Below are positions 15,201 through 45,675 of a stretch of DNA of 64,000 nucleotides, one piece after another. Every line of letters begins with the position of its first letter. The first letter of the stretch is position 1. The notes beneath the pieces are model-generated. The model did no database searches, was not told where the DNA came from, and was given only the letters and a program-made list of their open reading frames with translations. The DNA is from an uncultured Candidatus Saccharibacteria bacterium (lineage in GTDB: Bacteria; Patescibacteriota; Minisyncoccia; UBA6257), in assembly GCA_964479005.1 (NCBI GenBank), contig CAYZJA010000001.1, forward strand, positions 160,001-224,000, read 5' to 3'. Both the position numbers and the translations under genes were made by a program.

Positions 15201-16172
15201 ATGACAAAAACTCAAAAACTAATTTTTATTCTTCTATTTTCTACTTTCTGCTTTCTATTTTTTAGTTCTTCTTCTACTTTAGCCGCGGAGTTATATTTGG
15301 AGAATTCCGAGGATAATTATTACGTTGATGAAACTTTTATTACTGATATAAGGATTAATGTTGAAAATAATGAAAGCATTAATGCTATTGAAGGTTATTT
15401 AAAATTTCCAAGTAATATTTTGGAAGTAAAAGATTTTAGCACTGGTAATTCGATACTTACTTTTATTGAAGAGCCAAAAATTAATAAAGAAGAAGGTTTG
15501 ATTTCTTTTGTTGGAATTATTCCTGGTGGATATAGTGGAAGGATTCCTGGTGATCCTGGACAAAGTAATCTTTTAGGAAAAATAATTTTTTATTCTATTT
15601 TTTCTGGCACAGCAGAGATTATTTTTGAAGATAGATCACAAGCATTATTAAGCGATGGGGAGGGAACACCAGCTAAGTTAATTAATAAAGGAGTAACTAT
15701 TGAGATCGTAACTAAACCCTTCGACTACGCTCAGGGCAAGGATGAATGGCAGGAACAATTAGAAAAAGACAAAATTCCTCCAGAAGATTTTAAACCAGAA
15801 ATTATTAAAATTGATGATAAATATTATTTAGCTTTTACTACTAAAGATAAAGATTCTGGTATTGATCATTATGAAGTTTTAGAAAAGAATTTTTGGACAA
15901 ATATAAGTAAATTATTAGGAAGAGAAAAATGGATAGTCGCAGAAAGTCCTTATTTATTAAATGGGCAATCATTAAGTAATAGGATAGAAATAAAAACAAT
16001 AGATAAAGCGGGCAATGAGAGAATTGTTAAATTACCAGCTACATATTATTTGCCTTGGTATAAAAATTACTTTATTTGGGTTATACTTATAATAAGTATT
16101 TTTTATGTGATATGGAGAATAATCGCGAAACAGAAAAAAAACAATACGCGAAACCCCGAAGAAAAGCCTTAG
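15201..16172 (+). CDS. cohesin-like domain protein, signal peptide, C-terminal TM anchor
   Basis: The signal peptide and beta-sandwich pattern '...IRINVENNESINAIEGYLKFPSNILEV...ISFVGI...GTAEIIFED' are consistent with a cohesin fold. C-terminal TM 'FIWVILIISIFYVIWRII'. Confidence 0.5.
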   Translation: MTKTQKLIFILLFSTFCFLFFSSSSTLAAELYLENSEDNYYVDETFITDIRINVENNESINAIEGYLKFPSNILEVKDFSTGNSILTFIEEPKINKEEGLISFVGIIPGGYSGRIPGDPGQSNLLGKIIFYSIFSGTAEIIFEDRSQALLSDGEGTPAKLINKGVTIEIVTKPFDYAQGKDEWQEQLEKDKIPPEDFKPEIIKIDDKYYLAFTTKDKDSGIDHYEVLEKNFWTNISKLLGREKWIVAESPYLLNGQSLSNRIEIKTIDKAGNERIVKLPATYYLPWYKNYFIWVILIISIFYVIWRIIAKQKKNNTRNPEEKP

Positions 16173-17929
16173 GCTTCCTACGGGGCAGGCAGACGCGAAA
16201 TTTCTTAATTTGGTTTAGCGTCGGTTTAGCGTTTTTCCTTGGCGTTGGTTTAACGCTGCCTGTGGTAGCGCAAGCGGCAAGTCTATATTTTTATCCTTCA
16301 TCTGGTTCTTATTCCATTGGTCAAACTCTTACTGACTCTGTCTATGTTTCCAGTTCTGATCAGGCAATCAACGCGGCTTCAGGAATTATTTCCTTTCCAC
16401 AGAATAAAATACAGGTTGTATCACTTTCAAAAACAGGTTCTATAATGAGTCTTTGGGTTCAAGAACCATCTTTTTCTAATACTATTGGGACAATCAACTT
16501 TGAAGGTATTATATTAAATCCTGGGTTTATCGGAAATAATGGCAAGATTATTGATATTATTTTTAAATCAAAGGCGTCAGGAATTACACCGTTAAGTTTT
16601 TTTTCAGCGTCAGTTTTGGCTAATGATGGTAAAGGGACAAATATTTTAACAAGCTCTGGGAGCGCTAAATATAATATTATAATCACTACAACTACAGCAA
16701 CCTCGCCAAGTATACCAACTGGGGATGCAAGAACGCCAAGCGCTGTAATTATTTCTTCTGAAACTCATTCCGATTCTAATAAGTGGTATAGTTCTGCAAC
16801 AGCTGAACTTTCTTGGCCTTTAACTGATGATATTACGGCTACTCGTCTTCTTATTAGCAGAAGCTCAAAAGCTTATCCTACTGTGATTTATACACCTGCG
16901 ATTTCTTCTAAAACAATCACCAATTTAGGTGAGGGTATTTGGTATTTTTATGTACAGCTCAGAAATAAATATGGGTGGGGTGATGTTGCTCATTTTCGTT
17001 TACAGATTGATAATACTCCTCCAGGGCCATTAGAAGTTGAAATAGACAATGAAGGAGACCCTACTAATCCTCAGCCCTTGCTTTGCTTTAAAACAAGTGA
17101 TTTTTTATCAGGAATTGATTTTTATGAAATAAAGATTGGAGAGATCTATAATCTCCAGATTTCAATTAATGAAATAAAGGATAATATTTATCGTTTACCG
17201 CTTTGTCCTCCAGGCGAATATTCATTAATAGTAAAAGCCGTAGATAAAGTAGGAAAATACAGTTCAGTAACAAAAAAATTAAATATAGCATCAATAGACG
17301 TTCCAATTATTAGTGACTACTCAAGAATATTATCTAAAAATGATTACTTAGTAATTCTGGGTTATGCAAGATTAAATGATATTGTAAAGTTGTTTATTAA
17401 AAGTGAAAATAAAAAAGTTGCAAGTTATATTGCTAAACGCGATAATGAAAAATGGAGTTATAAAGCAGAAAAACCTTTGCAAGCAGGGATTTATGCAATT
17501 TGGGCACAAGCAGTTGATTCTCGTGGAGCTAAAAGTAATTTTTCAGAAAAAGTCGAAATTTCCGTAGATTCTCCAGCATTTCTTAGATTTGGATTTGGCA
17601 ATTTTATAGTTAGTTATATTGATATTATAATTATTTTTATTATTCTTATTGTTCTTACAGCATTGGCTTGGGTCTATTATGCAAGAATAAAATTAGTGCA
17701 GACAAATCTTCTTAAAGAAGATATTACACAGACTCAGAAAAACTTATACGAAGCTTTTGATCTTTTGAGAAGAGAAGTTACAAGAGAAATAGCCAAACTT
17801 GATAATAATGATCTTTTATCAGAGAGAGAAGAAGCAGTTAATGAAGAATTGAAAAAAGCTATTAGAAAGTCAGAAGAGTTAATTACTGAAGAAATTAAAG
17901 ATATAAAAGAAAAAATAGACAAATCGTAA
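16112..17929 (+). CDS. cohesin-like domain protein with extended Ig-like region, C-terminal TM anchor and coiled-coil tail
   Basis: Signal/TM 'FLIWFSVGLAFFLGVGLTLPVVAQAA' and a cohesin-like segment 'INAASGIISFPQNKIQVVSL...GTINFEGII...ITPLSF'. The start is ambiguous (16076 or 16112) and overlaps the upstream gene. TM 'IIIFIILIVLTALAWVYYA'. Confidence 0.5.
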   Translation: MENNRETEKKQYAKPRRKALGFLRGRQTRNFLIWFSVGLAFFLGVGLTLPVVAQAASLYFYPSSGSYSIGQTLTDSVYVSSSDQAINAASGIISFPQNKIQVVSLSKTGSIMSLWVQEPSFSNTIGTINFEGIILNPGFIGNNGKIIDIIFKSKASGITPLSFFSASVLANDGKGTNILTSSGSAKYNIIITTTTATSPSIPTGDARTPSAVIISSETHSDSNKWYSSATAELSWPLTDDITATRLLISRSSKAYPTVIYTPAISSKTITNLGEGIWYFYVQLRNKYGWGDVAHFRLQIDNTPPGPLEVEIDNEGDPTNPQPLLCFKTSDFLSGIDFYEIKIGEIYNLQISINEIKDNIYRLPLCPPGEYSLIVKAVDKVGKYSSVTKKLNIASIDVPIISDYSRILSKNDYLVILGYARLNDIVKLFIKSENKKVASYIAKRDNEKWSYKAEKPLQAGIYAIWAQAVDSRGAKSNFSEKVEISVDSPAFLRFGFGNFIVSYIDIIIIFIILIVLTALAWVYYARIKLVQTNLLKEDITQTQKNLYEAFDLLRREVTREIAKLDNNDLLSEREEAVNEELKKAIRKSEELITEEIKDIKEKIDKS

Positions 17930-38938: not shown

Positions 38939-40138
38939 ATGACAAAACGCAAATGGACTAAAGAAGATGACGAATATCTTATCCAACATAGTCCGAAACA
39001 ACGGGGAGATTATGGGAAGTTGGCTATCAAACTTGATAGAACAGTAGAAGCAGTGAGGTATAGGTGTAGAAATCTAAAATTGGAAAATGTCCAAAAGAAT
39101 AGTCAGGCACAGAGAACAGATGTTCCATTAGAAGATAGGATTTACGAATTGCTTTCACATTCCAAAAAACATTCTATTGAGGAGCTAAGTAATACATTTG
39201 ATATTTGTGTAGGAAAGGTTAAAGAAGCATTAGGTGTATTACAGAGCAGACGGATTTTAATAGACGCAATAGATGACAAAATTGTTTTAGGGAATACGAT
39301 TAAACCACCAAAAGCCACTCCAATTCCGATGAAGATTTATCATAATAGGTGGATTAAGTTTGGAGTAATCAGTGATACTCATTTGAACTCCAAATATCAA
39401 AGATTGGATATTTTAAACCACGCTTATAAAATCTTTCAGAAAGAAGGAGTGAAGAATGTTCTACACGCTGGGAATATTATAGATGGTTATGGTAGATTAA
39501 ATCAGTTTGATGTATTTAACATCGGGACAGAAGACCAAATCAACTATTGTATTGAAACCTATCCTTGTAAGCAAGGGATTACTACTCACTTCATTACTGC
39601 TGATGATCACGAGGGATGGATTGTAAGGAGAGAACACATTAACATCGGAGAATTACTTGAACTCAAAGCTAACAAAATGGGTAGAAAAGATTTGAAACAT
39701 TTAGGATATATTGAAAGTGATGTGTTAGTTAAAGTTGGAAGCAAACCTACAAGAATTAGAGTATTCCATCCTGGCGGAGGCACAGCATATTCTCTTTCTT
39801 ATAAACCTCAGAAGATTGTTGAGTCCTTACAGGGTGGAGAAAAACCTGATATATTATTAGTCGGACATTTTCATAAACTCGGACATTTTGAATGGCGGAA
39901 TGTGGAAGTGTTATTGACTGGTTGTATAGAAGACCAAACTCCATTTATGAGAAAGAAACATATTGCTGCTCATCTTGGTTTCTATATTGTGAAAGCCCAT
40001 ATTGCTCCTGACGGTTCTGTCAATAGATTCATTCCAGAAAAGATTAGCTATTACGATAGGAAATATTATACCAGCAGAGCTTGGAAGAAAACTCCTACCA
40101 GTTTTGAAAAACCTATTGAATGGTTTTACAAGTGGTAA
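38939..40138 (+). CDS. Myb/SANT-like HTH + winged-helix fused to calcineurin-like metallophosphoesterase (phage-type)
   Basis: N-terminal 'KWTKEDDEYLIQH...GDYGKLAIKLDRTVEAVRYRC'. Phosphoesterase motifs 'GVISDTHL', 'HAGNIIDG', 'LLVGHFHK'. Consensus SD 'AAGGAGGTG' upstream. Confidence 0.6.
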   Translation: MTKRKWTKEDDEYLIQHSPKQRGDYGKLAIKLDRTVEAVRYRCRNLKLENVQKNSQAQRTDVPLEDRIYELLSHSKKHSIEELSNTFDICVGKVKEALGVLQSRRILIDAIDDKIVLGNTIKPPKATPIPMKIYHNRWIKFGVISDTHLNSKYQRLDILNHAYKIFQKEGVKNVLHAGNIIDGYGRLNQFDVFNIGTEDQINYCIETYPCKQGITTHFITADDHEGWIVRREHINIGELLELKANKMGRKDLKHLGYIESDVLVKVGSKPTRIRVFHPGGGTAYSLSYKPQKIVESLQGGEKPDILLVGHFHKLGHFEWRNVEVLLTGCIEDQTPFMRKKHIAAHLGFYIVKAHIAPDGSVNRFIPEKISYYDRKYYTSRAWKKTPTSFEKPIEWFYKW

Positions 40139-40208
40139 GTATTCGCTCTTAAAACAAAACGGGGTGTCTTAAACACAGACACCCCTAATCTCACAGGAGG
40201 TGATTTTG

Positions 40209-40781
40209 ATGAAAATCTTAATCGATTTGGACGGAACAGTATTTGAGACTTACGACACTTTAGAAGAAAAGTTTGTCCAGAAATTTAATCGCAAAATGAA
40301 CTGGCAGGCGCTGAAAAGCGGCAAGAATCATTACTGGCAAACAGATGGGGGTAAGTGGATAGTCAAGCAATTCAAAGACCCAAACTTTTATTACAATTTA
40401 GAAACTTATCCTGATGCTCCCAAAGTGTTAAGGCAACTTGCCCGAAAACATACAATCATATATTGTACCGCGAGGAGGTTTGGATTAGAAAATGCCACCT
40501 CCTATTCGCTTGGTTATAGAAAACTGCCATTCGGGAAGGTATATTGTATTGGCAGGAGACACATTGCGGGGGTTAAAAAGAGAATTGCCTTAGATGAAAA
40601 AATTGACCTTGCTATTGATGATGAATCAAAAGTGGTAGAAAAACTTTCTGAAGTCTGTCAAGTTTTGATATTTACTCAGAATTATAATAAAGGTTGTAAA
40701 TTCGGTAAGAGAGTAAAATCTTGGAAGGAGGTGCGTCATGAATTACAAGCAAAGAAAAGAAATAATAGAACAAGCAAATAA
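40209..40781 (+). CDS. 5'(3')-deoxyribonucleotidase-like HAD protein (NT5C family)
   Basis: 'MKILIDLDGTVFETYD' DxDGT at the N-terminus, ~190 aa, with SD 'CAGGAGGTG'. ATG 40209 is preferred over the track start 40200. Confidence 0.5.
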   Translation: MKILIDLDGTVFETYDTLEEKFVQKFNRKMNWQALKSGKNHYWQTDGGKWIVKQFKDPNFYYNLETYPDAPKVLRQLARKHTIIYCTARRFGLENATSYSLGYRKLPFGKVYCIGRRHIAGVKKRIALDEKIDLAIDDESKVVEKLSEVCQVLIFTQNYNKGCKFGKRVKSWKEVRHELQAKKRNNRTSK

Positions 40782-41073
40782 AAGACGTCAATCCTTAATG
40801 CTTAATAAAGGAAAAGAATATTCAAAGGGTAATGCCGATATTAATTATAACTTTAAAGAAGTTGCTGATAGATTAGGCACTCGTCTTGCTGGAACTCCTG
40901 AATATACTTGTTTAGTTTATTTATTCAAACAGATTTTATCAATAGAGAAATGGGCAAGAGATGGAAAGTTAAGTTCAGGGGAAACAATTTTTTCAAGATT
41001 AGATGATGCCAGAAACTACATGGATATTTTAGAAAGTCTGATAAGAGAAAAATCCGATGTACAAGGAAGGTGA
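40738..41073 (+). CDS. hypothetical protein (111 aa)
   Basis: An ORF with SD 'GGAAGGAGGTG' that overlaps the upstream gene. Confidence 0.45.
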   Translation: MNYKQRKEIIEQANKRRQSLMLNKGKEYSKGNADINYNFKEVADRLGTRLAGTPEYTCLVYLFKQILSIEKWARDGKLSSGETIFSRLDDARNYMDILESLIREKSDVQGR

Positions 41074-41077
41074 TGGT

Positions 41078-41224
41078 ATGGAAATTCAGAATGTTTACTG
41101 TTTGATTAAGATTACTTGTGTTGTGATTATTGTAGTAGGATTTTTCGCAATTGTTCAATTACATCTTAAAAGAGAAAAGCAAAGGATACGGGATTATTAT
41201 AAAAGAGGAGGTGATAAGCGATGA
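41078..41224 (+). CDS. small membrane protein (48 aa), holin-like size
   Basis: Manual ORF 'MEIQNVYCLIKITCVVIIVVGFFAIVQLHLKREKQRIRDYYKRGGDKR' with one TM and a charged C-terminus. ATGA overlap with the next gene. Confidence 0.35.
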   Translation: MEIQNVYCLIKITCVVIIVVGFFAIVQLHLKREKQRIRDYYKRGGDKR

Positions 41225-42303
41225 AAAAACTACTCGTAGTATTGATTTGTTTGTTTCTATTAGTTCCAACTGTAATTTCTGCACCAGTTGAAAGATTAAG
41301 TGTAGGAGATTTTACTCGTGCAGTAACGGCTCAGATAGTCTGTAATGTTGATGTGTATAGACGGGATTTAACCTGGTATAAGATTGAGGATGGTCAGGTG
41401 ATCCCTGAATTCAAAGATTTAGATGAAGATGACTGGGCATATCAATGGTTAAAGAAAGGCTGGTTCGTGGTATATGGCGAATGGAATACAGAACCTCGCA
41501 AAGGTAAGATAATGGGTTCTGGTGAAGTATTATATTCCTGGTTATTACCTATGGGGATTAACTTAGAAGGTAAACCTGCTGCAACTTATGTAGGCACAAA
41601 TGCCCATGTGGTAGATGTATTTATGTTAGAAGCCAGTAGGGGTTCAAGAGATAAACCATTAGACCTATATGCCGAGAAGGACACGATGAAGACAATGAAT
41701 ATGCTTAGAACGACTTATAAAGAAGAGGCTAAACCAATAGCCCAGTATTACTTTGATATAGATAACAGTTATATCACTGTAAAGACCGAAGCAGACCAAA
41801 GATTTAGAACTAAAGTTAACATCGTATTGTTTGACATAGCATTAGATTTTGCCTTATTGGAAATGGAAAATGTTTTAGGTCTGCCTTATGTGAGTTTTAG
41901 AGGCACTCCTATACAGGTTGGCGAAACGATTAAAATCTGTGGAGCACCATTAGGATTTGCTTTTAGTAGAGACGAAGGACGAGTAAGTCAAGTTCACTTA
42001 AATCTCGGAACTGATGGAGTGGAAGATTATATTGTATGGGATAACCAAGTGCGTATGGATATTGCTGCTGCACCAGGAAGTTCGGGTAGTGCGATATTTG
42101 ATAAAGATGGCTATATGATTGCCCAATTACACGGAATAATGGTTCACAACGGCAACTATATTCAAGGCGGACAATTAGCAGTAGACCAAGAAGATATAAT
42201 TCGTTTTCTGGTGTTAAATGGTTTTTCGTGGATAGTTCAAAATCCTTATGGAATTTGGGCTAACGCACCATATAATACAGTCCGACCAAAAGTAGGAGAA
42301 TAG
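41221..42303 (+). CDS. secreted trypsin-like (S1/Trypsin_2) serine protease
   Basis: Signal peptide 'MKKLLVVLICLFLLVPTVISAP'. Catalytic His 'GTNAHVV', Asp 'DFALLEME' and Ser 'APGSSGSAIFD'. SD 'GAGGAGGTG'. Confidence 0.6.
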   Translation: MKKLLVVLICLFLLVPTVISAPVERLSVGDFTRAVTAQIVCNVDVYRRDLTWYKIEDGQVIPEFKDLDEDDWAYQWLKKGWFVVYGEWNTEPRKGKIMGSGEVLYSWLLPMGINLEGKPAATYVGTNAHVVDVFMLEASRGSRDKPLDLYAEKDTMKTMNMLRTTYKEEAKPIAQYYFDIDNSYITVKTEADQRFRTKVNIVLFDIALDFALLEMENVLGLPYVSFRGTPIQVGETIKICGAPLGFAFSRDEGRVSQVHLNLGTDGVEDYIVWDNQVRMDIAAAPGSSGSAIFDKDGYMIAQLHGIMVHNGNYIQGGQLAVDQEDIIRFLVLNGFSWIVQNPYGIWANAPYNTVRPKVGE

Positions 42304-42380
42304 AAATGAGAATTAACGCAGAGGGGGCTTACCTTGATGGTTTCTAAAAGTCCCCCTCCAGCTGTATGGAGGTGATTAAG

Positions 42381-42530
42381 ATGAGGTGGTTATTACTCAC
42401 ATTTGCAATATCTACTATCATATCTTTTGTAGGATTTGTGAATTGTAAAATGGAAAAGGAGAAAGATTGGTTTATTGCGTTATTGGTTTCTGCAACATTA
42501 GTTGTATTGATGTTTGTTGAATTATCTTAG
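42381..42530 (+). CDS. small two-TM membrane protein (49 aa)
   Basis: Manual ORF 'MRWLLLTFAISTIISFVGFVNCKMEKEKDWFIALLVSATLVVLMFVELS' with SD 'GGAGGTG'. Confidence 0.35.
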   Translation: MRWLLLTFAISTIISFVGFVNCKMEKEKDWFIALLVSATLVVLMFVELS

Positions 42531-42545
42531 GGGGAGGTGATAGAG

Positions 42546-42893
42546 ATGAAGAAACGAAGAAAAAAGCAAAAAGTTAAGAGAGAAGTTTTAAAGAAAATTG
42601 TTAGAGAGAAAAAGGTTTGTTATTTCTGTGGAACTACCGAGAATATAACCGAGCATCACATAATTTTTAAGTGTTTCATTAAAGGCGGAGAGTTACCAAA
42701 TAACAAGAAAGACATTTGTGATAAGTGCCACAAGCAGTTTCATAAATTAGCAAAACCTGTTGTGGATTTACTCTTATCGGTAATTCAAGGATTACAACCG
42801 AAACCAACTCGGAAAATAGGATTCATAAGAACGAACAACAAAGGAGGCGAAAGAAATGAGAAACATAAAAAGATGTCTATTGTTCTATCCTGA
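42546..42893 (+). CDS. HNH endonuclease
   Basis: 'CYFCGTTENITEHHII...NKKDICDKCHKQFH' is an HNH/CxxC..CxxH pattern, with SD 'GGGGGAGGTG'. Confidence 0.6.
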   Translation: MKKRRKKQKVKREVLKKIVREKKVCYFCGTTENITEHHIIFKCFIKGGELPNNKKDICDKCHKQFHKLAKPVVDLLLSVIQGLQPKPTRKIGFIRTNNKGGERNEKHKKMSIVLS

Positions 42894-43080
42894 CATACTG
42901 CCAGCTTTACCTTGTTCTTATCCCGATGAGGATAAATGCGGTAGATATATGAAAATCTATCGTAGAAGTAAGAACAGAAAACAGGCAATAGTTCTTTGCT
43001 CACATCGGGTTAAAGAATTAGGTAGAAAGACTTGTGTCAGAGAACAAATGAAACTCAAAGATTCTACAATTTACAGGTAG
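42856..43080 (+). CDS. small Cys-rich protein, paralog A (74 aa)
   Basis: 'C...P.LPCSYPDEDKCGRY...CSHRVKELGRKTC' shares a motif with 43436..43630. Confidence 0.45.
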   Translation: MRNIKRCLLFYPDILPALPCSYPDEDKCGRYMKIYRRSKNRKQAIVLCSHRVKELGRKTCVREQMKLKDSTIYR

Positions 43081-43113
43081 AATTCTCAAAGCCATTAGAA
43101 GGAGGGAGAAGAA

Positions 43114-43275
43114 ATGAAAACAAGAATAGTAGTAATTGTAGAAAATGAAATATCTTATTCAGTAAATGATTTTACCAGAATGGAACTCAAAGTTTTCAAG
43201 AAAAGGATTAAGGAACAGATAGAAGAGAAATTGTTAGCAGGTTGGAAAGTGATAAAAATAAAAATTAGGAGGTAA
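43114..43275 (+). CDS. small hypothetical protein (53 aa)
   Basis: Manual ORF 'MKTRIVVIVENEISYSVNDFTRMELKVFKKRIKEQIEEKLLAGWKVIKIKIRR' with SD 'AGGAGGGAG'. Confidence 0.35.
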   Translation: MKTRIVVIVENEISYSVNDFTRMELKVFKKRIKEQIEEKLLAGWKVIKIKIRR

Positions 43276-43281
43276 GAAGTA

Positions 43282-43422
43282 ATGAGAATAACAAGAGAAG
43301 AGCTCGTAAAACAAGGATGGTCATTTATGAGAAGAATAAGCAGAAATTGCGAAATCTGGACAAGAGAAGAAGGAATGATCCTATGGAATAGAGAAACATT
43401 AAAGGTTTATGTGATATGTTAG
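43282..43422 (+). CDS. small hypothetical protein (46 aa)
   Basis: Manual ORF 'MRITREELVKQGWSFMRRISRNCEIWTREEGMILWNRETLKVYVIC' with SD 'TAGGAGGTAA'. Confidence 0.3.
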   Translation: MRITREELVKQGWSFMRRISRNCEIWTREEGMILWNRETLKVYVIC

Positions 43423-43435
43423 GAGGTAAAAAGAA

Positions 43436-43630
43436 ATGAGAGATATTTATCGTTGTCCGATTATGTGGAAACTTTTAAAGAAAGCAACTCCTTGTGCGTA
43501 TCCTGATGTTGAAAAATGTGGAAGAGTTGGTGGCTCTTTCCTTTGTAAATATCGGATAGCTGAAATAGGTAAAAAGAATTGCCTTAAAGAAGTTGCTGAG
43601 TTGAAAGATTTTGCTAAAACTCTCAAATAA
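43436..43630 (+). CDS. small Cys-rich protein, paralog B (64 aa)
   Basis: 'C..PCAYPDVEKCGRV..C......GKKNC' with SD 'TAGGAGGTAAA'. Followed by the hairpin GGCAAGAG..CTCTTGCC at 43639-43662. Confidence 0.45.
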   Translation: MRDIYRCPIMWKLLKKATPCAYPDVEKCGRVGGSFLCKYRIAEIGKKNCLKEVAELKDFAKTLK

Positions 43631-43794
43631 AAGCCAATGGCAAGAGGGCTATATCTCTTGCCACTCTCTCGGAGGGTATTTGTAGATGTTGTTCAAAATC
43701 ACATAAGTCCCATTTTTCTACAAGTATCTTCCGAGAGGGTAATTTCCTCAAACTAATAAAGGTCTTTAAAAAATAATCATAAATAAATATAAAT

Positions 43795-43995
43795 ATGAAA
43801 TTTTGGAAACCTCTCACAAAATACAGATATAGCAAAGAGAGAAATGAAGTTAAATATCATACTGATTTTATGCTTGATAAAGAAGAAGGATTTGAATTAA
43901 GATTTGCGGACTTTATGTTTAAGGAAAAAGTTCCAAAAGATAAGGTTTGGAAATGTCATCTTGAGCTTGCTGTGGAGGAATTTAATGAAAAATAA
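43795..43995 (+). CDS. hypothetical protein (66 aa)
   Basis: An ORF with no recognisable motif and no SD. Confidence 0.3.
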   Translation: MKFWKPLTKYRYSKERNEVKYHTDFMLDKEEGFELRFADFMFKEKVPKDKVWKCHLELAVEEFNEK

Positions 43996-44103
43996 AACAA
44001 CCAAAAAACATTGTGCGTTACATTATAAATCTAAATAAACTTAGTTATATTATTTTAATAGATTAAAACAATTTTTAAATTTTACGAATTAGAATATGTT
44101 CCA

Positions 44104-44556
44104 ATGTTCCAAATATCCGAAGAAAAATTAAAAAAGATAAGAACGGTAGAAATTGCCATCAATAAGAATTTATTTTTAATTTGTATTGTTATTTCAGTAA
44201 TAACAATGAGTATTTTAGGAATAGAATTTTTTAGCCATAGAATCTTTCCTTCTTCTAAAATAAGTTTTTTTTACATTGGGATTTTGTTGATTTATTCTAT
44301 TCATAAGGAAATGTTGAGATGGGTAGGAGCAAAAAGAATAGAAAGGCAAGGTGAGTGGTTTGTTTATTTTTGGATCGGATTTACTATCATCTTATATGTT
44401 ATTAATTTCTCTACAAAAGGTTATTTTAATTATCCTTTAGGAAATACATCATCGGAATCGCTTAATCAAATTGCCGTTACTACTTTAGAAATCTGCGGCA
44501 TTTTTATTGTTTCTAGATTATCTAAGATGGCAAAGATTATTTTGGAAAAAAGATAA
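44104..44556 (+). CDS. hypothetical multi-TM membrane protein
   Basis: About four hydrophobic helices and no SD. Confidence 0.45.
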   Translation: MFQISEEKLKKIRTVEIAINKNLFLICIVISVITMSILGIEFFSHRIFPSSKISFFYIGILLIYSIHKEMLRWVGAKRIERQGEWFVYFWIGFTIILYVINFSTKGYFNYPLGNTSSESLNQIAVTTLEICGIFIVSRLSKMAKIILEKR

Positions 44557-44624
44557 TAATAATATTCTAAGATAGAACATTTTTTGTATTTTGAAAATTA
44601 AAAAGAGAGGAGGTGGACAATTTG

Positions 44625-45258
44625 ATGAAATTATTAAGAGTTTTTTTTGTCAGCTTTTGGGAAAGGAATTATAACTTTGGTTCCAATCTTAATTATTTTC
44701 TGGTTACTTGGACTTTTTTTGGGAGAAAATATGATAACTATGCGAGATATCATATTTTCTATTTTAAGGGGATTACTTCCTAGGGGGATGGTAGTGCAAG
44801 AGTGGATGATTGGTTTAGGATTGATTTTAACTATTCTGTTTGTCGGTTTAATTTCTTCATCAATTTTCAAAAGAATCTACGCCTGTACAGGTAGATTAAT
44901 AGGTAAATTAATCCAAAAATCATTAACAGGGAAAATAAAAGAACAATATCAGGATCAGGGTATGGTGATATTTGAGTTTAGGGAAGGAATATGGATTCCA
45001 GGAATTATAGTTGGATATATAGCAGGAAGTGAAAAACTTAAGGGTGGAAAATTTTTGAGAATCTTTATTCCCAATGTACCCATACCTTTAACTGGATTTT
45101 CACCTATTTTTGTGCAAGAAAGCAAAGTGATACATATCGATCTTCCGGTTGATGAGGTACTTAATATGTATATTTCAGCTGGGATATTAGGCCCTAAAAG
45201 ACTCCCAGAAATAGTCAGGGAATTAGAGAAAAGAGAAATAATATCAAAAATAGACTAG
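44625..45258 (+). CDS. DUF502/COG2928-like membrane protein; ATG 44625 is out of frame with the main ORF (TTG 44647) across a T8 tract
   Basis: A strong SD 'GAGGAGGTG' sits 8 nt before ATG 44625. Removing one T from TTTTTTTT (44641-44648) gives 'MKLLRVFLSAFGKGIITLVPILIIFWLL', which resembles (from memory) the DUF502 N-terminus 'MK.LR..FL.GLL.LLPL.IT'. Confidence 0.5.
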
Positions 45259-45272
45259 TAGAGACTTTTAAA

Positions 45273-45311
45273 GGCGGTCTCAATATTTATCTGAGAACCG
45301 CCCTTTTTTTT
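45273..45311 (+). terminator. rho-independent terminator
   Basis: GGCGGTCTC-(11 nt)-GAGAACCGCC followed by CTTTTTTTT. Confidence 0.7.
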
Positions 45312-45346
45312 GGTATAAGAAAACTCTAATCTATACCAGGGATGGA

Positions 45347-45375
45347 TTGACTAACAAGATTATTAGTGGTATAAT
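45347..45375 (+). promoter_or_regulatory. sigma-70 promoter TTGACT-17-TGgTATAAT
   Basis: Consensus spacing with an extended -10, located 58 nt upstream of ATG 45433. Confidence 0.5.
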
Positions 45376-45432
45376 TGGATTACTCTACTTAGTACTCTTG
45401 AAAATTTTAAAAAAAGGAGGAAAAAGAAAAAG

Positions 45433-45675
45433 ATGAAAAGGATATTATTTGAAAAGAACGCTAAAAGAATTACAAAGGCAGTAGCAGAATTTGTTGCAGA
45501 AGAATTTAAGCCTTTGAGGGAAGGGGATAAGATAAAAAAGATAGGAGAGCTGTTAAAGGGTTTTGAAGACACAAAAAAAATAAATGGAAATTTTTTTGTT
45601 GTTCTTCGATTACCTGAAGGGACAGAAGCAGCAATTGACTTACAAGGAAGACTTTATGACTTAAATGAAATTTGA
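45433..45675 (+). CDS. hypothetical protein (80 aa)
   Basis: SD 'AAAGGAGGAAAAAG'. No motif recognised. Confidence 0.45.
   Translation: MKRILFEKNAKRITKAVAEFVAEEFKPLREGDKIKKIGELLKGFEDTKKINGNFFVVLRLPEGTEAAIDLQGRLYDLNEI

Follow-up and report, generated by a model that had tools for sequence, protein, structure and literature searches.

In Escherichia coli, repeats of 3–8 nt readily acquire frameshifts, the bypass of which is no more than partial (Rockah-Shmuel et al., 2013; PMC3812077). The frequency of indels climbs about 2.5-fold with each nucleotide of the repeat (PMC3812077), and transcriptional slippage in runs of A or T leads mainly to insertions (PMC5574713). Two other kinds of gene bear on the locus described here: the poly(A)-interrupted genes of insect endosymbionts, and the slipped-strand contingency genes of host-associated bacteria, in which the length of a homopolymer serves as a switch.

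The literature searched reports no function for bacterial DUF502 proteins, which receive passing mentions only, and a search of the PDB found no solved DUF502 structure. The family, PF04367 in Pfam, is one that we take to be associated with COG2928 and with the plant COV1/LCV proteins.

The gene in question lies in a 64-kb stretch of DNA, which was analysed as a whole and is referred to as the window. The genome has a GC content of about 30%, and the best match to its AlaRS (65% identity) is among Patescibacteria/CPR MAGs. The features of the locus are as follows.

44104..44556, + strand: ORF for a 150-aa membrane protein, an upstream neighbour that is conserved in the loci of relatives
44605..44616, + strand: Shine-Dalgarno (SD) site GAGAGGAGGTGG, with its GGAGG core at 44609-44613, read from the sequence
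44625..44627, + strand: ATG, the ancestral start codon, whose frame the gene body no longer follows
44625..44783, + strand: frame read from the SD-led ATG, comprising MKLLRVF (seven ancestral codons) and then 45 out-of-frame codons
44641..44648, + strand: T8 homopolymer, the site of a derived +1 T insertion; relatives have T7
44647..44649, + strand: TTG, the first start codon of the long ORF, within the end of the T tract and taken as the start by gene callers
44647..45258, + strand: 203-codon body of a divergent DUF502-family membrane protein, its ORF intact
45273..45311, + strand: putative terminator-like hairpin GGCGGTCTC ... GAGAACCGCC, recognised by eye, followed by C and T8

An earlier note on this DNA had pointed out that the T tract separates a start codon from the frame of the long ORF, and this can be read directly in the sequence. 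The tract at 44641-44648 is exactly eight nucleotides long with a G on each flank. The frame that opens at ATG 44625 reads MKLLRVFFVSFWERN... and terminates at TAG 44781-44783; the long ORF, from TTG 44647 to 45258, encodes 203 aa and is offset by +1. Since TAA 44635-44637 shuts the frame of the long ORF on its 5′ side, TTG 44647 is the first possible start of that ORF. The shifted frame amounts to 56 aa when it is opened at GTG 44613 and 52 aa when opened at ATG 44625, and neither peptide was found in a collection of about 15 billion proteins. The same note had predicted that loss of one T would restore a continuous protein. Removal of one T from the tract does give the uninterrupted reading MKLLRVFLSAFGKGIITLVPILIIFW... 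/ MKLLRVFLSAFGKG..., in which the tract encodes Val-Phe-Leu (GTT TTT TTG) as codons 6–8, and which carries the ancestral N-terminus, as does the MKLLRVFLS... that relatives encode with T7. Within this repaired reading, MKLLRVFLSAFGKGIITLVPILIIFWLLGLFLG is identical to residues 9–41 of the homolog P0004. To judge from that identity, and from the coding of the relatives' T7 genes in one frame, the repaired frame is more than chance.

Some further observations concern the surroundings of the gene. Immediately after TAG 44781-44783 comes GGGG, followed by ATG 44788, the codon for Met48 in the main frame; termination followed by reinitiation there would yield a product without the first transmembrane helix (TM1). 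The hairpin beyond the gene has an 11-nt loop and was therefore unreported by the automatic scan, which was limited to loops of 3–8 nt. A promoter-like TTGACT-17-TATAAT (11 of 12 positions agreeing with consensus) occupies 45347-45375, 5′ of an 80-aa ORF at 45433.

The strong SD attributed to ATG 44625 in the earlier note was borne out by calculation. Against a generic anti-SD, the duplex energy 5′ of this ATG is −13.3 kcal/mol, which ranks it among the top 0.1% of the window's NTG triplets. TTG 44647, with −2.4 kcal/mol, is close to the median of the background (−1.8) and has essentially no SD, and the only SD-like element near the tract is a weak AAGAG at 44636-44640. Nearly all ORFs of the window start at ATG, TTG being rarely credible as a start, and most genes have no SD and are preceded by AT-rich leaders. 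Strong SDs of the GGAGG type are found at five starts only (38939, 40200, 41221, 44625 and 45433), all of them clustered at 38939-45675, just downstream of rpsD-rpoA...rpsI (34.9–37.9 kb). This region has a slightly higher GC content (0.34–0.36) and contains weak phage-like matches (D5-like/metallophosphatase, NT5C, HNH and a trypsin-like protease); possibly it is an island that was acquired horizontally or derives from a mobile element.

Homopolymers are classic sites of error, and the earlier note had listed a sequencing error among its options; on that reading the true genome would have T7 (or T10) and the T8 would be a miscall of sequencing or assembly. The available assemblies may also come from related libraries and a single chemistry. 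Against this, the T8 is present in 7/7 assemblies of the strain, from at least four runs and at least two pipelines (Logan and JGI). These are the window itself, the Logan assemblies of SRR3095939, SRR3085416, SRR3085435 and SRR3091719 (L001-L004), and the JGI metagenomes 3300028837 (L009, a 551,616-bp contig) and 3300005782 (L010); the last six are 100% identical to the window across 1.1–8.4 kb. The seven represent independent libraries or assemblers rather than populations, being clonal (0 differences in 8.4 kb) and probably from one site or project. The 203-aa product is present on eight contigs of the public collection, six of which were retrieved for comparison. An exact match to the T7-repaired 210-aa protein of this strain is missing from the collection of about 15 billion proteins. 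Scans of metagenome and viral contigs for variants in tract length returned only SDBT01000295.1, which is L006, and no new T7 or T9 alleles. Of the runs in the window, 21 of the 27 A8/T8 runs, and 66 of the 75 A/T runs of 7 nt, fall in frame within intact ORFs at least 100 aa long, including housekeeping genes such as AlaRS. Because an A9 run exists in the related loci L005/L006, sequence collections evidently do not truncate homopolymer runs. The occurrence of T8 in all assemblies, together with the 8-nt runs that are in frame, makes a random miscall very unlikely. The T8 insertion is genuine and is fixed at the consensus (assembly) level.

The window was scanned for other pairs of ORFs that a 1-nt indel in a homopolymer would join, and no other convincing case was found. 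ORFs 15201-16172 and 16076-17929 overlap at an A8 run at 16134, where addition of one A gives a fused ORF of 911 aa. As a second frameshift this site was rejected, ATG 16112 being a plausible start with the A8 in frame (MENNRETEKKQ...), and the two ORFs, neither of which has an NCBIfam match, are probably overlapping genes.

With respect to the homopolymer content of the window, runs of A of 5, 6, 7 and 8 nt number 337, 131, 49 and 19, and the corresponding runs of T number 249, 87, 26 and 8, a geometric decay. The 64 kb thus contain 102 A/T runs of at least 7 nt. Extrapolation of the decay predicts about 15 runs of 9 nt or more; none is present in the window, a deficit that points to strong counter-selection of runs matching the RNA:DNA hybrid in length (about 9 nt). 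At a GC content of about 30%, and in a Phe-rich motif (RVFLS, KFFFYG, KLFLYG), poly-T can be understood as a by-product of TTT codons.

The direction of the change at the T tract is indicated by the relatives. A word-indexed homology search with the repaired protein yielded four clusters at E ≤ 1e-3, its own and only three further ones, P0002 (217 aa), P0003 (210 aa) and P0004 (214 aa), with 66–78% aa identity to it; a profile search of the contigs of GTDB species representatives with the subfamily alignment revealed no relative. Four related loci from three lineages (L005/L006, L007 and L008) have T7 and a single continuous frame with the N-terminus MKLLRVFLS or MELLGVFLS, the opening ATG of which is homologous to ATG 44625 of the window. 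Near the tract L008 is identical to the window apart from the extra T, and the SD GGAGGTGG is conserved in L005-L008. Across 60/60 family members, the invariant glycine of TM1 is preceded by 9–49 residues (median 18.5), basic ones included; the product that starts at TTG 44647 would have six, and six or fewer are found in 0/60 homologs. From the T7 of the relatives and these N-terminal lengths it follows that T8 is a derived, lineage-specific +1 insertion (T7 → T8), that the ancestral start lies upstream of the tract, and that TTG 44647 is not ancestral. The earlier note had held that uniform T8 in the reads, together with homologs starting at the equivalent of TTG 44647, would speak against a disrupted gene. 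The assemblies are indeed uniformly T8, but the homologs do not start there.

A reading in which TTG 44647 is the ancestral start and the tract a 5′-UTR spacer was considered and rejected. It is contradicted by the family-wide N-terminal lengths, by the homology of MKLLRVF to KLVKFFF/KLVKLFL and by the conserved SD. The latter two peptides belong to more distant members, P0008 (at L092; MKLVKFFFYG) and P0009 (RKLVKLFLYG), at the homologous N-terminal place. At L092 (3001-3030) the start of P0008 consists of an SD and then ATG AAG TTG GTA AAG TTT TTT TTC, and this ATG too is homologous to ATG 44625. An in-frame T8 (AAG TTT TTT TTC, encoding KFFF) is thus found in P0008 at the homologous site, as it is at L094 and L095. 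Poly-T at this N-terminal site thus recurs within the subfamily.

A 21-nt in-frame indel between the SD and the ATG was also seen, the comparison being made at L005:4970-5000 and L007:670-700. L005-L008 have GTG AAA AAG CTA AAT GCT/TCT GCT/GTT in this place, so that a GTG start adjoins the SD and the protein is longer by MKKLNAA; the gene-caller starts are ATG for P0003 and GTG for P0002 and P0004. The segment is absent from the window (44617-44624) and from L092, where the ATG adjoins the SD. Its length, a multiple of three, is consistent with a coding region. Since both the window and the distant L092 are without it, the change may have gone in either direction.

The likeness to DUF502, which the earlier note had proposed, was upheld at the level of the subfamily and fell short for the single protein. 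The window protein matches PF04367 over residues 97–155 with E=0.13 and 12.6 bits, below the cut-off of 23.8 bits, and P0002 alone has no Pfam match. With a subfamily profile built from four sequences, 372 proteins were found at E ≤ 1e-3 among 1.84 billion representatives, mostly of 200–250 aa and aligned over profile positions of about 11–200. Among the 60 best full-length matches that were aligned, 55 match PF04367, the best with E=3e-37. In the 60-member alignment G22, G81 and G193 are invariant, and P28, Y92, F154, P156, P159, P161, G164 and S191 are at least 90% conserved, forming the family motifs G...P in TM1, G in TM2, F.P..P.P..G and IS.G. The window ORF (P0001) keeps 11/11 of these residues; ten are invariant in the A3 alignment as well, P161 being replaced by V in P0004 and retained in the window (PIPLTG). 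An AF2 model of the relative P0002, made with 60 sequences, has a pLDDT of 84.7, with helices at 2–40 and 66–118 and strands at 120–178; with only four sequences the pLDDT was 46.9. Foldseek of the model against the PDB gave no significant match, the best (E~0.06) being Tudor/SH3-like barrels aligned to the C-terminal domain only. The predicted architecture is that of DUF502: a basic N-terminus, two TM helices and a small C-terminal beta domain. In the window gene the basic segment is found only in the repaired reading. Profile and residue conservation thus identify the gene as a divergent member of DUF502 (PF04367), with a resemblance that is real but distant.

The neighbourhood is also shared with relatives. 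The 150-aa ORF, which has no Pfam or PHROG match, lies directly upstream in all related loci that cover it (L001-L003, L005-L010), and downstream, in the window and in relatives, there are genes for an HlyD/YknX-like adaptor, an ABC ATPase and a MacB/FtsX permease. Two paralogous small Cys-rich ORFs at 42856-43080 (74 aa) and 43436-43630 (64 aa) have in common the pattern R/C...PC.YPD..KCGR...C......G.K.C; searches of Pfam and PHROG gave no match to either.

The T8 is a lineage-specific T7 → T8 insertion, fixed at the consensus level in a clonal population, and we consider it probable that the allele is a loss-of-function or strongly hypomorphic, leaky one. A frameshift mutation, pseudogenising or leaky, is the best supported of the three options named in the earlier note. 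Homopolymer runs being hot spots for indels, replication slippage in the GTT TTT TTG run is the simplest and most likely origin of the additional T. Ribosomes recruited by the strong SD would initiate at ATG 44625 and, after seven ancestral codons, continue out of frame until they terminate at TAG 44781-44783; the 203-codon body would be uncoupled from its translation start. The outcome would probably be a loss-of-function or strongly hypomorphic allele, in other words a young pseudogene. Three routes could still provide some product: rare SD-less initiation at TTG 44647, which would give a protein without the basic MKLLRVF segment; an occasional +1 slip of tRNA-Phe on UUU-U (44643-44646); and the loss of one U in transcription. 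Either of the latter two would recreate the ancestral protein exactly. All three are expected to be inefficient, and for that reason a loss-of-function or strongly hypomorphic allele is favoured.

The 203-codon body has no further lesion. Pairwise dN/dS is 0.25–0.35 between the window and its relatives, not clearly higher than the 0.23–0.29 among the relatives themselves, and the window has too few changes of its own (7.3 synonymous, 9.7 non-synonymous) for the lesion to be dated. The intact body and a dN/dS like that of the relatives imply either that the lesion is recent or that leaky expression suffices and the gene is still useful. Two further points weigh against the favoured reading. Fixation in every sample would also fit an allele that is tolerated or even favoured, and since SD-less AT-rich starts are usual in this genome, initiation at TTG 44647 is conceivable.

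These points lead to the alternative that TTG 44647 is a working new start from which a useful 203-aa protein without MKLLRVF is made, with the SD-led ATG frame becoming an overlapping upstream ORF. In its favour are the intact body with its dN/dS of 0.25–0.35, a genome in which most genes have no SD, and the AT-rich sequence of the 20 nt 5′ of the TTG; moreover, just seven residues would have been lost in an allele fixed in all assemblies. Nevertheless, TTG is rarely a credible start in the window, and ribosomes arriving from the SD and ATG only 22 nt upstream would cross it in another frame. The six residues left before the invariant glycine are fewer than in any of the 60 homologs, and K2 and R5, basic residues of the kind that precede TM1 throughout the family, would be gone. 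We regard this alternative as unlikely. Useful synthesis of the ancestral protein from the T8 allele, either by +1 ribosomal slippage on GUU UUU U or by slippage of RNA polymerase, also draws on the intact gene body. Movement of tRNA-Phe from UUU 44643-44645 to UUU 44644-44646 re-pairs perfectly and gives MKLLRVFLSAFGK..., in E. coli a measurable bypass of frameshifts is known for repeats no longer than 8 nt (PMC3812077), and the poly(A)-interrupted genes of endosymbionts are a precedent. Of the features of programmed frameshifting, the slippery re-pairing site is present; a conserved requirement and a stimulatory element are absent. Neither a hungry nor a stop codon occupies the A site, a UUU there is common in AT-rich sequence, and no conserved stimulator was found, the RNA fold of 44596-44715 having z=0.12 against shuffled sequences. 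The shift is unnecessary in relatives, the four related loci having T7 and the distant member an in-frame T8. Moreover, transcription would have to delete a nucleotide (or add two), and slippage in A/T runs mostly inserts (PMC5574713); bypass in such cases is partial (PMC3812077). Efficient recoding therefore has, in our estimation, only a slight chance of being correct.

The third option of the earlier note was a slipped-strand switch, with T7 as the ON state and T8 as the OFF state of a DUF502-like protein within populations. The position is suited to it, since a membrane-protein gene has the homopolymer among its opening codons, where T7 is continuous from the SD-led start and T8 is shifted by +1. 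Both lengths are known among related lineages (T7 in L005-L008, T8 in the window), a distant member keeps an in-frame T8 at the homologous site, and runs of 8 nt, the longest homopolymers of the window, are among its most slippage-prone sequences. Contingency loci are also marked by length polymorphism within a strain, and none was seen in the seven assemblies, at the consensus level, nor is the T7 product present among about 15 billion proteins. The tract is neither long nor over-represented against its genome, being one of 27 runs of 8 nt, beside 75 of 7 nt, most of which are in frame in ordinary genes, and its poly-T is explained by TTT Phe codons at about 30% GC. T7 has remained unchanged among relatives at dS of 0.25–0.9. 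Tracts of seven or eight T are short compared with classical A/T contingency tracts. Such a switch seems improbable to us. Slimmer still is the chance of its fullest form, a CPR contingency switch at the tolerated maximum of 8 nt, controlling a DUF502 protein beside a MacAB-like exporter and caught OFF in this population; if true, it would exemplify homopolymer phase variation within the CPR radiation and give a first lead to the function of DUF502. Neither phase variation nor programmed recoding is supported by the present data.

The fixed frameshift, our preferred reading, has a practical consequence for annotation. Every pipeline calls a 203-aa protein with a TTG start (P0001/P0005), and a real frameshift is thereby hidden. 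The TTG call drops the SD-linked start and the conserved basic N-terminus, and it is the relatives that show the true architecture. The locus offers a clean natural homopolymer indel in a reduced, AT-rich CPR genome, in a tract at the apparent 8-nt ceiling, and is a possible test case for the extent to which slippage rescues such lesions. As an ordinary homopolymer frameshift it will not surprise the specialist, and it opens no long-standing question.

In comparison with known systems, the window gene has the general plan of PF04367: a length of about 200–220 aa, a basic N-terminus, a TM1 with an invariant G...P, a second TM and a beta-rich domain. It differs from PF04367 at large in belonging to a small subfamily that scores below the Pfam gathering threshold, carries an inserted GKG in TM1, occurs only in CPR-like MAGs and adjoins a MacAB/YknXYZ-like exporter. 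With the contingency genes of host-associated bacteria it shares a homopolymer within the opening codons for a membrane protein and a tract length that differs between lineages; unlike them, it has no within-strain polymorphism in seven assemblies, its tract is ordinary for the genome and its relatives keep T7. There is a likeness also to the repeats of Rockah-Shmuel et al. (2013) and the poly(A)-interrupted genes of endosymbionts, in which, as here, a 1-base indel in an A/T run of 7–8 nt interrupts an otherwise intact gene. Further common features are an AT-rich, reduced genome and a causal repeat that could in principle itself permit frame-restoring slippage. In contrast to both, the tract of the window locus is only 8 nt, and it would need a 1-base deletion in the RNA, the direction that is disfavoured in slippage by RNA polymerase (PMC5574713).
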